Translations under genes and position numbers: made by a program | In this document: positions 19,835 to 24,011 of the stretch, piece after piece | How the letters are laid out: each line of letters opens with the position of its first letter | Numbering within the stretch: the stretch's first letter is position 1 | Notes under the pieces: generated by a model | Databases searched by the model: none | Seen by the model: only the letters and a program-made list of their open reading frames with translations | Told to the model about the DNA's origin: nothing | Origin: Fibrobacter succinogenes subsp. succinogenes S85 | Lineage (GTDB): Bacteria > Fibrobacterota > Fibrobacteria > Fibrobacterales > Fibrobacteraceae | Assembly: GCF_000146505.1 (NCBI RefSeq) | Contig: NC_017448.1 | Location: 210,001 to 242,000 of the forward strand | DNA length: 32,000 bases | Direction: 5' to 3'

Positions 19835-19893
19835 GGCGGATGAAAGAGGGGAAAGTCTTCCCCTCGCTTCAGCCCCGTCCCACCCTTAGTGTC

Positions 19894-19923
19894 AAGCCCG
19901 CGCAAGCGGGCTTCTCCTTTTTA
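19894..19923 (+). terminator. Rho-independent terminator of carAB
   Basis: AAGCCCGC-gcaa-GCGGGCTT (19894-19913) is followed by CTCCTTTTTAT. An additional hairpin, GAGGGGAA-agtc-TTCCCCTC, lies at 19846-19865. Confidence 0.65.
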
Positions 19924-20032
19924 TACCCCACCCAAGCCGGGTCTTCCGCTACCCCTTCTAGCGGGCTTCAGACGCCAGCCCGCAACGCCTAGCTTACGCA
20001 TTTCACCTAATCATTCTTTCATGATAATGAAA

Positions 20033-20797
20033 TCAAAATTCAAACAAAATCCTATCAACTTTTATATAAGTTTCACTTTTATTAGTATTATAAAATGTTG
20101 GATGATATTTTCCCAAAATTGATGTCAAAACTCTCTTTTTTTCGTCATCCATACGCAATCCAAAATACACTTCCTTGAGATCTCCTGGAATTGGATGAAT
20201 GCCATTTCCTCCCCGAAATGAAAGCCTACATTCATGCTCATATTGCCAATCCGATGCTTTGTAACGAATTATCGCTTCGGGCATTTCTTCTTCAATTTCA
20301 TCGAAACCAAATGAAGTCCCTGTTGGATATTCATCTTTATTTGCGTATATCATCTCATGAAGCCAAAAGTCGAGTATATAATAAGCTTTTCCTCTGAATG
20401 TTGTAAAAGGTTCTTCAAAATCAACATTGCGACATAAAGGATTGTTAAATTCAAATCCCAAACAAAAGCCATTAAATTTATCAGCATAATGAGCCCACAT
20501 CAATGTATTGTCCCAATGTGGAGAAAGGCAAACAAAGCCCATTTTATGAACATCCGCTTTAAACTCATCTACAGTAGAATCCCAACTAATGCCATATTGT
20601 TTTTCTATTGCAGTTGGCTTCATTCTAAAATTACAGTCAAAAGGATCATTAAAGTCTTTTGGAGAGGAAAAATACAAACCACCACAAATTAAGGGCCCCA
20701 ACGTATTTGAATTATACGAAAAGAACCGGTAAAGCATTATTTTATCGGTTTCTTTGGCAGAAAGACTTAGCCAGCCTCTTTTATATTCTGGATCCAT
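20033..20797 (-). CDS. DUF2971 domain protein
   Basis: 254 aa. It contains LYFSSPKDFNDPFDC, MWAHYADKFNGFCLGF and SDWQYEHECRL, the signature motifs of DUF2971. The gene is strongly AT-rich. Confidence 0.8.
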   Translation of the reverse strand: MDPEYKRGWLSLSAKETDKIMLYRFFSYNSNTLGPLICGGLYFSSPKDFNDPFDCNFRMKPTAIEKQYGISWDSTVDEFKADVHKMGFVCLSPHWDNTLMWAHYADKFNGFCLGFEFNNPLCRNVDFEEPFTTFRGKAYYILDFWLHEMIYANKDEYPTGTSFGFDEIEEEMPEAIIRYKASDWQYEHECRLSFRGGNGIHPIPGDLKEVYFGLRMDDEKKRVLTSILGKYHPTFYNTNKSETYIKVDRILFEF

Positions 20798-20836: not shown

Positions 20837-22015
20837 TTAATCCTTTACACATCGAACTGATCGAGCAAAACTAACAAATCCAACCCCATTAGTAGTATTT
20901 ACATATTCAGGACTATAATAAAGTCCTTCAGCACCAAATATTTTGTGATCGCTTACTCCATTAATTGTAGAAGGATTGTGGTAGCTTGAAGACCAAAACT
21001 TTGCGCTTTTACCAACACCAAGAACACCTAATTTTCCTCCATAACCTAAATCAATAAAATTGATCGTGCTTCCAACAAAATCAGCATATCCCGTAGGGAA
21101 AATATCAAAATTAACACTGTTTTTATTTTTTTCATTGTTAAGCCACCATCCTGTAGTTGCGCCTAATATTTGTCCTGCAACATCTTCGCCTCCCACTGTT
21201 GTTACAAGAAGTCGCCATTCTTCTATAGTGGGCAAGTGCCAACCATATGGGCATATTCCTTGAACTGGATATTTAGGCTTACAGATTGTATCATAACTAA
21301 AGTATCCGCAATTTTTTCCTCCAGTTGAAAAAATTGCAGCACTATCCATAGCTGCAGCCCAAGTGTAATAACGTCCATACTTTAAACAGCTGTCGTTATA
21401 GCAATAGCTTAAAGAATCTCTCATGGCAGTTGGAAAGATATAACCTCGATAATTTAAATTTTGAGCCATCCATGTTTGTTTTCCAATAGTGGTAATCTTG
21501 TAAATTTGACCATCTCTTGTGTCTTTCATGCAATTTTCATTTGTGCAAGGTTCTATTTTCCAATCATAACTACAATAATTTGAAGTCGAATTACAGATTT
21601 CGTCTAGATAATGACCTGTATTGCCATAACGTAACAAATCGAAGCAATATAAATTCCCATTAATAAGACTGTCTTTGAAATCAAAACAAGCTTGTAAACA
21701 AACATCAAAAAAAATACTATTATCCCGCCATTCTGAAGCACAGATATAATCATTTTCACAACTATAATATGCATCGCAAGATTTAACGCATTCGGAATTG
21801 TATGGTCGTTTAGAACATGTTTCTAATGGAGACTTAAAACATGTTCCAACGCTATCGCAAATCATTTTAGATACATCACTACTAGAACTAAATAAATCAA
21901 TTGTAGATGATGCTGGCAAATCTATTTTGTTTGTCAAATTCGTATTACTACTGGAATCATCACCGCAACTAGTCAAGAAGATTATCGTGACCAACGCTAT
22001 AATCAACCTTGTCAT
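20837..22015 (-). CDS. Lipoprotein with Cys-rich N-terminal region and C-terminal Fibrobacter succinogenes major paralogous (FISUMP, TIGR02145-like) domain
   Basis: The preferred start is the ATG at 22015, preceded by AAAGGGG. The product begins MTRLIIALVTIIFLTSC (lipobox). The C-terminal domain contains DTRDGQIYKITTIGKQTWMAQNLN, YGRYYTW, CPYGWHLPTIEEW, FWSS and SVRCVKD. The ORF-track start (22102) is an unsupported extension. Confidence 0.85.
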   Translation of the reverse strand: MTRLIIALVTIIFLTSCGDDSSSNTNLTNKIDLPASSTIDLFSSSSDVSKMICDSVGTCFKSPLETCSKRPYNSECVKSCDAYYSCENDYICASEWRDNSIFFDVCLQACFDFKDSLINGNLYCFDLLRYGNTGHYLDEICNSTSNYCSYDWKIEPCTNENCMKDTRDGQIYKITTIGKQTWMAQNLNYRGYIFPTAMRDSLSYCYNDSCLKYGRYYTWAAAMDSAAIFSTGGKNCGYFSYDTICKPKYPVQGICPYGWHLPTIEEWRLLVTTVGGEDVAGQILGATTGWWLNNEKNKNSVNFDIFPTGYADFVGSTINFIDLGYGGKLGVLGVGKSAKFWSSSYHNPSTINGVSDHKIFGAEGLYYSPEYVNTTNGVGFVSFARSVRCVKD

Positions 22016-22164
22016 TTTCGCCCCTTTCTGCCAAAGGCAGTCTGCGAGCTGCAGTCTTGTTCGGTAAGCTGTAGTCGTTTCTGCGGTTCGGCATTTCGGC
22101 AAGCTCAGTGACCTTAATTACCGACCTTCAGTGCCTTTATCAAGCGATTCCACACATTTTCTAG

Positions 22165-22373
22165 AAAACAAAAAAGGCATGGTGTCGCTCGGCTTATGCT
22201 TTGAAGGCTCTGGTAAACCCGCTATCTTAAGCACGACGGCTTACCAGGCAATATGCCTTAGCAAGTCGCGGGCAAACGCCCAACGACCCACACCCGATCG
22301 GTGTGAGCGTTCGTCTTCTTCCCAGATAGCGAGGCTTATGCCTCACAAAAGTTTACCAGACTTTTCAAAGCGG
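22165..22373 (-). ncRNA. Candidate structured non-coding RNA (family not recognised)
   Basis: This is a GC-rich island between AT-rich genes. The closing helix is GCTTTGAA/TTCAAAGC plus TCTGGTAAAC/GTTTACCAGA (18 bp, arms at 22351-22371 and 22198-22218). The GCTATCT/AGATAGC helix is nested inside it. At least four local hairpins are present. A G.U pair versus a C.A mismatch favours the minus strand. A TTGACA-16-TACTCT promoter sits just upstream and a U-run (CCTTTTTTGTTTTC) lies downstream. Stop codons occur in all minus-strand frames. Confidence 0.4.
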
Positions 22374-22532
22374 GAACAAGAGTACTACTCTAATTCAATA
22401 TGTCAATAGAAATATAACTTCTAACAACGGCAAAAGGTCTAAAAAGCCTCCTTAAAACTATTCAAAAAGCCCCATTTCAAGTCAGAACGGTGCCAAAACT
22501 TGCGATTTCGCCCCCAAAAATGTATATCGCCT

Positions 22533-22736
22533 ATGATATGGCATCAAGAAGCGCCTTATGATAACGACAAAAGTATTGATTCTTACAGATTGACAGACCT
22601 AAAAGAGCCGACAGATGAAATGCTTGCCCAAATCATGAGGGAAACTGCCGAAGACGCACGCAAGGCAAATGCAGAAGCTACCAATCGTTTTTTCGATGAA
22701 ATTGAAAAGATGTGCGAGAATGCTCGATCTCTGTAA
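22533..22736 (+). CDS. Small hypothetical protein (67 aa from the first ATG)
   Basis: The ORF reads MIWHQEAPYDNDKSIDSYRLTDLKEPTDEMLAQIMRETAEDARKANAEATNRFFDEIEKMCENARSL. It has no clear RBS and I recognise no family. Confidence 0.3.
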   Translation: MIWHQEAPYDNDKSIDSYRLTDLKEPTDEMLAQIMRETAEDARKANAEATNRFFDEIEKMCENARSL

Positions 22737-22789
22737 TTTACGAGACATCGTCTCAAATATTAGGAAGCTATCCCCTTGCAATACAGCAG

Positions 22790-22940
22790 CAAGCTCTTAG
22801 GGTTCAACGAAAAAAAAATCAAGCCCCTTTCATGGAGCTTCTTGCCGCCATCGAAGAAGGCGAAAAACTCACCCACGACTCGAATGCCCAAACGTATTCG
22901 ACACCGCAGGAACTTTGGGCCGAACAAGGCTTCTATACTA
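22790..22940 (+). pseudogene. Possible remnant of a RelB/DinJ-type antitoxin (C-terminal half only)
   Basis: The frame of ORF 22712..23032 reads ...APFMELLAAIEEGEKLTHDSNAQTYSTPQELWAEQGF. This resembles the conserved C-terminal tail of DinJ-family antitoxins (IPF...ETLAAIEE..K....P....Y.S.eEL...L). The N-terminal RHH is missing and no toxin partner is present. Confidence 0.3.
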
Positions 22941-23072
22941 GAATTTTTTGCATTTTTACGAAAAAAATCTGCCCAAAGCGTCCACTGTCACATTCTGACA
23001 TTGCAGGAATATATATTTGCAGGGAACGCTAAAACACCCGCCTTTTTCGCATGTAGGCGGCCGGAGGTAAAT

Positions 23073-24011
23073 ATGAACAGAAGCGAATTCATCGCCATGG
23101 CAAAGGACGTGCACGAGCATCCTGAGCACCTGGCAGACTACAGAAAAATCTACAAGAACGTTTATCCGTTCAGCGACGGCATCTTCAAGATGCTCATAGC
23201 CAACGAGGCGAAACCCGAACGGACTGTGAAATTCTTGAACGCAATGCTCGGGCTCACGGGAGACAAGGCCATAAAAACATATACCTTGGGGGTCCCAGAG
23301 AATCCTGGTGTGCTTAACGACAAGACCGCCATCTTCGACATCTACGGCACCACACAGGCAGGCGAGCCCGTGCTGATCGAGGTCCAGCAGAATTTCAACA
23401 CTCTGTTCGTTGACAGGCTCATCTACTACACCGCCCGTGTCATCTCGCGAACGGTCAAGAAGGCTCAAGATTACAATCTGCCGCATATCTACGTACTCTC
23501 CATCCTGACCGAAAATCAGTTCCCGAGGGAGCGCGACACCTATCTCCACCACGCCCAACTCGTGCGGAATCGCCATCTGTTCTACAGCAAGCTGGACATC
23601 TACCTTGTTGAACTAGAGAAGTTTTTCGCCATCGAGGACCGCACCCTGCCCGAGAACCGCGAACAGTCCGACAGGGCCGAAATGCTGCGGATTTTTCGCG
23701 ATGTCCTTGAAGACAAGGATATCCCCGAAGAAAAACTGAAACGGCTCCTTGACAAGGACTTTGCGAATGATGTATCTTTTAAGGGGTACACGGATGAAAC
23801 CCTTCTAAATGAGGTTGACGGAATGACGGACATGCTTTACGAAAAACAGGGCTCGTACCTGCAGGGAAAGGATGACGAACGTAATGAAATCGCCATCGCC
23901 ATGCTCGCCGAAGGTGATTCCATCGAGAAAATCGCCCGCGTGACCAAGCTTTCCGAGAATGACGTTCGCAAGTTGCAGGCAGAACAAGTCCGCGAAACGG
24001 CATCAGCATAA
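23073..24011 (+). CDS. Rpn-family recombination-promoting nuclease / PD-(D/E)XK putative transposase (TIGR01784-like)
   Basis: The ATG at 23073 follows GGAGGT. The product contains SDGIFKMLIANE, KTAIFDIYGTTQAGEPVLIEVQ (PD-(D/E)XK core D...E.Q), FVDRLIYYTARVI and YVLSILTENQF. Confidence 0.8.
   Translation: MNRSEFIAMAKDVHEHPEHLADYRKIYKNVYPFSDGIFKMLIANEAKPERTVKFLNAMLGLTGDKAIKTYTLGVPENPGVLNDKTAIFDIYGTTQAGEPVLIEVQQNFNTLFVDRLIYYTARVISRTVKKAQDYNLPHIYVLSILTENQFPRERDTYLHHAQLVRNRHLFYSKLDIYLVELEKFFAIEDRTLPENREQSDRAEMLRIFRDVLEDKDIPEEKLKRLLDKDFANDVSFKGYTDETLLNEVDGMTDMLYEKQGSYLQGKDDERNEIAIAMLAEGDSIEKIARVTKLSENDVRKLQAEQVRETASA

Follow-up and report, generated by a model that had tools for sequence, protein, structure and literature searches.

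The region upstream of a lipoprotein gene in Fibrobacter succinogenes S85 raises the question of whether a GC-rich, apparently structured segment of its minus strand is an RNA in its own right or a part of the message that follows it. Fibrobacter is a main cellulose degrader of the rumen, and to our knowledge almost nothing is known of how its genes are regulated. The window analyzed here, a stretch of 32,000 nucleotides (nt), derives from CP001792.1 (~3.62-3.63 Mb, reverse strand); positions below are those of the window, and features lie on its minus strand unless stated otherwise. A preliminary description had delimited positions 22165-22406 as a candidate non-coding RNA with its own promoter, which could be either a cis-regulatory leader or an independent small RNA (sRNA). 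We found these boundaries to be too narrow, as the conserved unit is ~400 nt long, with a promoter-like box at one end and the start codon of the lipoprotein gene at the other (22416-22013). On balance, comparison of its homologs inclines us to the view that the flagged segment forms the core of a conserved leader that acts in cis, i.e. a 5' untranslated region (5' UTR) of ~400 nt that would set the translation or mRNA stability of swappable accessory genes.

Homologs of the element and covariation of the core domain

Starting from orthologs of the lipoprotein (82-52% identity), we reached metagenome contigs in which the region upstream is 83-87% identical to the segment and already displays compensatory changes. 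A pattern derived from two invariant blocks then retrieved 13 true copies from Fibrobacter metagenome-assembled genomes (MAGs), with three other matches being due to chance, and a search with a 19-nt piece of the invariant leader yielded 65 metagenome loci, nearly all with the whole RNA. Altogether ~75 homologous copies were recovered from Fibrobacter genomes and from rumen and gut metagenomes; after removal of duplicates, 55 distinct sequences constitute the alignment (A3) to which the figures below refer unless another sample is given. Two copies come from bins of other lineages, namely L016 (Alphaproteobacteria bin, 3.5 kb) and L020 (Bacteroidales bin, 2.8 kb); by their near-identity to the Fibrobacter loci L028 and L025, these are probably mis-binned Fibrobacter DNA. 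In another copy (L055:2779-2840) the promoter-like box, the leader and the 5' strand of helix P1 are intact and the sequence diverges completely after GAAAA; it has thus lost the RNA domain and is a decayed copy.

The minus-strand RNA (22375-22165) folds with a predicted energy of -86.6 kcal/mol (z = -4.5), as against -80.5 kcal/mol for the plus strand. Across the alignment 97.8% of the 3015 pair cells are kept, compared to 33-46% when the partners are slid, such that substitutions among the homologs preserve the helices; changes on both sides occur at 21 pairs, and the covariation score of 0.291 (0.141 for shuffled alignments) is attained by none of 500 shuffles. A mutual-information scan that uses no structure independently recovers P1, P3, P4, P7 and the closing pair of a hairpin that we term HP. 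Several G.U pairs are invariant in the 55 homologs, which fixes the strand as minus, and the alternations between A-U and G.U or G-C and G.U are likewise sensible only on that strand. The earlier suggestions that the segment forms a genuine structured RNA, is read from the minus strand and is GC-rich relative to its surroundings (0.495 versus 0.31-0.39 for the downstream genes) are all borne out by these data.

Nor could the RNA be assigned to a known family, in keeping with the first inspection: covariance models of Rfam 15, which include 6S, RNase P, SRP, tmRNA, every riboswitch class, T-box and group II intron domains, gave no match in the window at the gathering score, nothing relevant on 22000-22600 at E<=10, no hit on the leader of locus L029 at E<=10 and none on 15 homologous loci, while ARAGORN detected no tRNA or tmRNA across the window. 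The only open reading frame (ORF) overlapping the segment, on the plus strand at 22131-22409, is an uninterrupted run of 92 codons, which is what a protein-coding explanation would draw upon. As initially judged, it is not protein-like, having no Pfam match, and the substitutions follow base-pairing rather than codons, with indels of 1-20 nt among homologs in P3 and P8; there is next to no chance that the segment is conserved for this frame.

The domain is closed by P1, whose 5' strand GCUUUGA (22365..22371) pairs with 22204-22198 and which shows double changes at all seven pairs. The preliminary description had envisaged one closing helix of 18 base pairs (bp) between 22371-22351 and 22218-22198. 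Both arms are present; the single helix is not, for its inner part overlaps a local hairpin, HP (22348..22364), in which AAAG (22364-22361) pairs with CUUU (22351-22348) around an invariant 9-nt loop, UCUGGUAAA (22360-22352). This loop doubles as the 5' strand of P2, being complementary to the invariant UUUACCAGA at 22217-22209, and hence the supposed helix is better described as P1 together with either a pseudoknot or two alternative states. The HP consensus is AAAR-UCUGGUAAA-YUUU, and its closing pair (columns 65-75), which emerged unexpectedly from the mutual information, is GU in 23 sequences, GC in 15, AU in 10 and UA in seven, i.e. paired in 100% of them.

The nested helices proposed at the outset (GCTATCT/AGATAGC, GACG/CGTC, GAGGC-ataa-GCCTC, CUCACACC-gaucg-GGUGUGGG, GGGC-guuu-GCCC and AGGCA-uau-UGCCU) were likewise recovered, with one correction: an AAG/CTT pairing gives way to GGG/CUU because G114 is U in half of the sequences. 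P3 (GAGGC-AUAA-GCCUC, 22331..22344) has double changes at five of five pairs. P4 and its extension P4b (5' strand GCUAUCU plus GGG, 22321..22330; partner 22231-22221) have them at six of ten, with the GGG/CUU of P4b being invariant and including G.U pairs. P5 (GACG, 22312..22315, with 22238-22235) is 100% paired and changes only between G-C and G.U; in predicted folds this GACG may instead pair with CGUU (22285-22282). Since four CG dinucleotides never vary, two topologies of the P5/P7/P8 junction fit equally well. The hairpin P6 (GCUCACACC-GAUCG-GGUGUGGGU, 22286..22308) comprises nine pairs, 99.8% paired, of which seven never vary and one is an invariant U.G. It is followed by P7 (CGU-U-GGGC-GUUU-GCCC-GCG, 22267..22285), with compensatory changes of GGGC/GCCC to GGGU/ACCC and AGGU/ACCU, and by P8 (22239..22266), which is variable in length and sequence and has covarying closing pairs. 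No variation occurs in P2, P6 or the greater part of P7, so that covariation neither supports nor contradicts those helices.

The loop of P6, GAUCG (22299-22295), is invariant in the 55 sequences and contains the self-complementary GAUC, which might let two RNA molecules pair through their loops; as DNA, CACACCGATCGGGTGTG is a near-palindrome. A further mutual-information signal, between column 54 and the tail columns 262 and 266, tracks one lineage and forms no helix, and was taken as phylogenetic.

From the core domain to the start codon

Conservation does not stop at the core domain. The start codon of the lipoprotein gene lies 183 nt past the closing helix, and the sequence in between begins with a nearly invariant tail (consensus AUAAGCCGAGCGACACCAURCC; AUAAGCCGAGCGACACCAUGCC in S85) and an equally conserved U-run (22175-22165), which together with a returning A-rich arm form a long hairpin (22142..22197). 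The U-run had been read as a terminator-like end, and an sRNA with its own promoter, ending at this point and only incidentally close to the lipoprotein gene, would be consistent with the conservation of the U-run after the domain and with the stable folding of the domain by itself. Against this, no hairpin precedes the U-run, no minus-strand terminator was called in the consensus scan, and in 49 of the 55 sequences the U-run is predicted to pair with the A-rich arm downstream, which would place it on the 5' side of a hairpin. Moreover, conservation carries on as far as the start codon, a segment just ahead of the ribosome-binding site (RBS) is complementary to the 5' leader, and a same-strand ORF follows every copy at a fixed distance from that segment. 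We therefore regard an independent sRNA as very unlikely, and of the two options originally entertained it is the cis-regulatory leader that agrees with these observations.

Beyond the hairpin lies a variable spacer (22070..22141), which causes the distance from tail to start codon to range from 65 to 217 nt between copies, and then a module found directly before the start codon in every copy, with the consensus GAAYAAGA-CC-GCUGCUC-GCAGA-CUGCC-UUU-GGCAG-AAAGG-UGCGAG-AG-AUG. Its first part, GAACAAGA-CU-GCAGCUC in S85 (22046..22062), constitutes the 3' strand of a long-range helix, P0, the 5' strand of which is the invariant leader GAGUAGUACUCUUGUUC (22374..22390) at the other end of the unit. 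Whole-leader folding brought this helix to light as GAGUAGU-AC-UCUUGUUC pairing with GAAYAAGA-CC-GCUGCUC, 15 bp with a 2x2 internal loop and wobble pairs. In 60 distinct sequences P0 is 95.8% paired, as opposed to 30-56% when slid, and the changes on the module side are mostly neutral with respect to pairing (U.G in 46 and U-A in 12 at one position; G.U in 33 and G-C in 27 at another). RNAalifold predicts P0 unguided on 25 full-length leaders, and single-sequence minimum free energy (MFE) folds also show it. As the leader strand never varies, P0 offers no two-sided covariation.

A second pairing, PT1, links UAAGC of the tail (22196-22192) with GCUUA (22069-22065) in S85. In homologs the tail AAGCCG pairs with CGGCUU just 5' of the module, reaching 9-11 bp in lineages with short spacers; PT1 is 74% paired versus 27-46% when slid. 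According to the comparative data, P0, P1 and PT1 together form a three-way junction with very short linkers, and the whole S85 leader (22404-22010, 395 nt) folds with z = -6.0.

The second part of the module (22013..22045) contains the RBS hairpin CUGCC-UUU-GGCAG (22040-22028), the Shine-Dalgarno (SD)-like AAAGGGG (22027-22021) and the start codon ATG (22015-22013). The RBS hairpin covaries freely (CUGUC/GACAG, CAGCC/GGCUG, CCAUC/GAUGG), and the nucleotides between the SD-like AAAGG and the AUG pair with its 5' flank as an outer stem, in two registers depending on lineage. Ensemble predictions have the SD region engaged chiefly in local pairs.

P0 also bears on a different possibility, namely that P0, and perhaps PT1, is a processing stem (e.g. 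for RNase III) whose cleavage would release a stable RNA of ~300 nt acting in protein sequestration, multimeric assembly or pairing in trans, and would leave an mRNA with its 5' end just before the RBS hairpin. The bracketing of the entire structured part by P0 would suit this, as would the sequence invariance of P2, P6 and P7, which is expected if a partner reads them, the self-complementary loop of P6 and the presence of multiple copies within genomes. However, the internal loop and wobble pairs of P0 argue against such a stem, and control in cis accounts more simply for the close and conserved spacing between P0, the RBS hairpin and the start codon; accordingly, we consider release of a trans-acting RNA unlikely.

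Several other roles for these sequences were evaluated and set aside. The tail CACCAUGCCUUUUUU resembles the 3' end of 16S rRNA and is complementary to AAAGG, suggesting an anti-Shine-Dalgarno; tail-SD pairing averages 0.1 of 10 nt in the ensembles. Pairing of the tail back to P6/P7, as a terminator or a pseudoknot, amounts to 5+1+3 bp with mismatches, and the variable positions lack covariation. The GAGCCG...CGGUUC of PT1 in some copies recalls domain V of group II introns, and CUGCC/GGCAG recalls the hairpin of type I-F CRISPR repeats; neither has an Rfam match, the RBS stem varies as described above, and we take both resemblances to be coincidental.

Small inserts able to form hairpins recur in the spacer that separates the pre-RBS module from the U-run hairpin. 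One type (GUCAUUGCGAGCG…GCGAAGCAAUC) is found in L018, L046, L048, L070 and L084, and another (GGUCAUUCUGGAGUGUAGCCGAAGGCGAAACGAUAGAAUCC) in L027, L029, L036, L052 and L082; they resemble miniature repeats accommodated in a permissive loop of the leader.

The 5' end of the leader

The preliminary description had placed a TTGACA-16-TACTCT promoter upstream of the closing helix, with transcription starting 1-2 nt before it. This assignment does not stand: the hexamer at the supposed -35 varies (ATAACA, GTGACA, TCGACA), the distance from TGACAT to AGAGTAGTACTCT is 2-4 nt shorter in about 12 sequences, a loss that a -35/-10 pair would not tolerate, and the scan does not call this promoter. Furthermore, the supposed spacer and -10 are invariant and partly base-paired with the downstream segment. 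The only invariant promoter-like element is instead a near-consensus -10, TATATTT (22410..22416), which is invariant or at least 96% conserved in 55 distinct upstream regions and stands at a fixed 4-5 nt from TGACAT; the conserved block begins ~7 nt upstream of it. We infer TATATTT to be a -10-like box, with TTGACAT (22400..22406) more likely being the transcription start region than a -35. Transcription would then begin near 22400-22405, and the 24 nt upstream of the closing helix, which are invariant in 17 of 17 sequences not retrieved by that stretch, would be transcribed.

The invariant leader can also form a local alternative hairpin, AGAGU-AGU-ACUCU, which is present in the S85 MFE structure; at the DNA level the copies that carry the RNA have a perfect palindrome here, AGAGTA-G-TACTCT. 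Two loci, L011 (83-150) and L080 (reverse strand, ~2358-2470 of the reverse complement), display the same start, TATATT(T/A)-N-TTGAATTAGAGTA, without the structured RNA, a leader of ~60 nt running directly into lipoprotein genes. Conservation of the first ~25 nt thus does not depend on the RNA domain, and may reflect an operator or a start-site context.

We refer to TATATTT merely as a -10-like box because a promoter of the Fibrobacteres-Chlorobi-Bacteroidetes (FCB) type, TAnnTTTG, is not clearly enriched as a general Fibrobacter feature (29 sense versus 18 antisense occurrences upstream of 298 ORFs). Logan contigs that start at 22382, 22397 and 22447 were considered as transcript 5' ends and are better read as assembly breaks in multi-copy sequence; the same contigs also end at 19961, within another repeat, and they were not used for placing the start site.

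Swappable cargo downstream of the leader

In the window the leader precedes two cargo genes, a lipoprotein of the Fib_succ_major (TIGR02145-type) family (20837-22015, Pfam), the real start codon of which is the ATG at 22015, and a DUF2971 protein (20033-20797, Pfam). Across ~73 loci the first ORF after the module belongs to at least 20 unrelated families. Fib_succ_major lipoproteins are the largest group, often with DUF2971 as the second gene; the remainder include other lipoproteins, secreted proteins, GIY_YIG_2, FRG and UDG-superfamily proteins, an 8xMP membrane protein, a trypsin-like peptidase, an OmpA-like protein, a zinc-ribbon protein called by eye from its MFCQKCG... cysteine motifs, and several families with no Pfam match. 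The DUF2971 protein of S85 matches the PADLOC phage-defence candidate PDC-S31 (E = 6e-40), and an FRG-domain cargo protein (locus L058) matches the candidate PDC-S15 (E = 5e-27).

When copies at a single site are compared, homology covers the flank on the upstream side as well as the leader, is interrupted at the start codon, and resumes 1.1-3.1 kb further on. At the S85 site, L066 and L050 share the RNA side (22709 to ~22127-22149) and the carB side and carry other cargo; L069 shares the RNA side (24579 to ~22124) and then diverges, and L009 is collinear. These comparisons raise the possibility that conservation acts at the level of DNA, the element being a portable homology block or mobile repeat that serves cargo exchange by recombination, with the RNA fold secondary. 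In its favor, flanks and leader remain constant while the cargo differs between strains, the element is multi-copy with unusually high identity between copies, and a second GC-rich repeat is often found at the 3' side of the cargo. However, the substitutions keep helices, and the A-U/G.U changes are meaningful on one strand only as RNA. Likewise, the paralogs of a single genome have diverged: three copies in one MAG (L019, L022 and L025) differ from each other by compensatory changes and are not recent duplicates. The element is always oriented with the start codon and ends exactly at it, and viral contigs (IMG/VR) contain zero exact matches for the leader or P6. A role purely as DNA thus appears distinctly improbable.

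The second repeat (19888-19997, ~110 nt, …AGGCGUUGCGGGCUGGCGUCUGAAGCCCGCUAGAAGGGGUAGCGGAAG…GAAGCCCGCUUGCGCGGGCUU) forms two G+C-rich hairpins and bounds the cargo in ten loci (the window, L009, L023, L034, L040, L066, L074, L085, L089 and L094); at several sites it is where the variable cargo ends on the right-hand side. It is found inverted and upstream in L044, L087, L088, L093 and L095, and several S85 assemblies break inside it, at 19961.

On the far side of the leader lie a divergent ORF of 67 amino acids (aa; 22533-22736, plus strand), annotated publicly as a gene and devoid of Pfam matches, a PDDEXK_2 transposase-like gene (22776-24011, plus strand) and, third, a GH30 gene; neither the 67-aa ORF nor the PDDEXK_2 gene is kept beside other copies of the RNA. 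More generally, neighboring genes are not conserved between copies and, where checked, are often of mobile or conflict type, the precomputed Pfam labels including AbiEii (with a faint AbiEi match), Fic and PDDEXK_2. A second copy of the element was not found within the window.

A model for the leader

Based on the above, we propose that the leader would be transcribed together with the lipoprotein/DUF2971 operon. By the comparative analysis it adopts a three-way junction composed of the ~175-nt P1-P8 domain as its sensor-like core, a variable arm bearing the U-run hairpin, and the closing helix P0. The P1-P8 domain includes the pseudoknot or switch between the HP loop and P2, and P0 brings the segment just upstream of the RBS hairpin together with the transcript's first ~30 nt, which are invariant. 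We posit that some common cellular signal, be it a small molecule, a protein or another RNA, acts on the folded domain, and that formation or opening of P0 competes with the local leader hairpin and the outer RBS stem; the state of P0 would thereby set ribosome access, mRNA stability or both for any cargo gene placed behind it.

Several observations tell against this proposal. The support for P0 is one-sided, its leader strand being invariant and most sequences having been retrieved with the leader pattern. P0 is present in only about half of the sequences in thermodynamic ensembles, and one fold of the S85 leader lacks it, the local leader hairpin competing there. The downstream genes have no common function from which a ligand could be guessed, and the invariance of P2, P6 and P7, with few conserved unpaired nucleotides, is explained no less well by a protein or RNA that recognizes the element than by a small-molecule pocket. 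Finally, the extreme conservation could partly reflect recombination between copies.

With these reservations, cis-acting control of swappable genes is still the reading that we favor. A more specific version of it is possible, if doubtful: the ~175-nt domain would be a sensor of a metabolite, a protein or an RNA (e.g. a tRNA end) that gates the cargo via P0, as part of a Fibrobacter-specific modular system. It is similarly tentative that the cargo gated in this manner would encompass candidate anti-phage effectors (DUF2971/PDC-S31, FRG/PDC-S15, GIY-YIG, trypsin-like peptidase and membrane proteins) alongside surface lipoproteins.

As judged from the homologs, the element is a genuine representative of a new Fibrobacter class of large, structured 5' leaders: a covariation-supported RNA with no Rfam relative, repeated in genomes, ahead of at least 20 accessory gene families. 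One leader before many unrelated, strain-variable genes suggests a shared control device. A sensor, if confirmed, would define a new regulon of surface and conflict-related genes and a new ligand- or partner-binding RNA fold; processing, if confirmed, would define a new abundant structured RNA. Either way, the leader provides a testable handle; it also marks hypervariable cargo sites in Fibrobacter genomes, fixed chromosomal slots at which the cargo is exchanged between strains.

Comparison with known systems

The intergenic regions of Fibrobacteres have previously been screened against rumen metagenomes (Weinberg et al. 2017, PMC5737381), and Fibro-purF is the sole Fibrobacter-specific structured RNA in the literature that we found (PMC7668255, PMC5737381), a statement that does not extend to the supplementary tables of Weinberg et al. 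2017. Like the present leader, Fibro-purF is found in Fibrobacter and rumen metagenomes and is a cis-regulatory candidate with no assigned ligand; unlike it, Fibro-purF is rare, small and restricted to the upstream region of purF, and its Rfam model does not match this region.

Among better-understood elements, riboswitch classes such as c-di-GMP-I (GEMM) precede many unrelated genes, including those for surface proteins. The leader shares with them a covarying multi-helix 5' UTR domain, located on the strand of the downstream ORF, multiple copies ahead of unrelated genes and variable peripheral hairpins. The analysis points to candidate mutually exclusive pairings that may or may not switch, namely the HP stem versus P2, the local leader hairpin versus P0, and P0 where it overlaps the outer RBS stem. 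The leader differs from these riboswitches in that its conservation reaches all the way from the promoter to the start codon, that entire helices are invariant and that a long-range helix closes the UTR; no ligand is indicated, and neither a terminator-type expression platform nor a match to an Rfam riboswitch was detected.

The Correia elements of Neisseria and the pneumococcal BOX elements are short repeats resembling miniature inverted-repeat transposable elements (MITEs); they are bounded by terminal inverted repeats and occur in many near-identical copies whose distance from genes varies. The present element is likewise multi-copy and intergenic, presumably co-transcribed with the downstream gene, and endowed with stable RNA helices and a possible processing site. 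It differs in its length of ~400 nt, in the divergence of its copies by compensatory changes and in its extent, which is always exactly from promoter to start codon. The broader comparison with MITEs and repetitive extragenic palindromic (REP) sequences cuts both ways: the element is multi-copy, but its copies differ by compensatory changes and invariably run from promoter to ATG, and its sole end-to-end complementarity, P0, includes G.U pairs.

A third parallel is with the vmp expression sites of Borrelia, where homology sequences lie upstream and downstream of variable surface lipoprotein genes, and with the cassette arrays of integrons, in which a constant 5' region is likewise combined with interchangeable genes, many of them for lipoproteins, and often with a 3' repeat. 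Here, in contrast, each copy has its own promoter-like box, the copies are scattered over the chromosome and a large covarying RNA makes up the constant region; neither a silent archive nor a recombinase or integrase was observed beside the leader copies. The element could be assigned to none of the systems compared: in behavior it comes nearest to the riboswitch classes that precede many unrelated genes, and its distribution in the genome most resembles that of transcribed intergenic repeats and of expression sites whose genes can be swapped.

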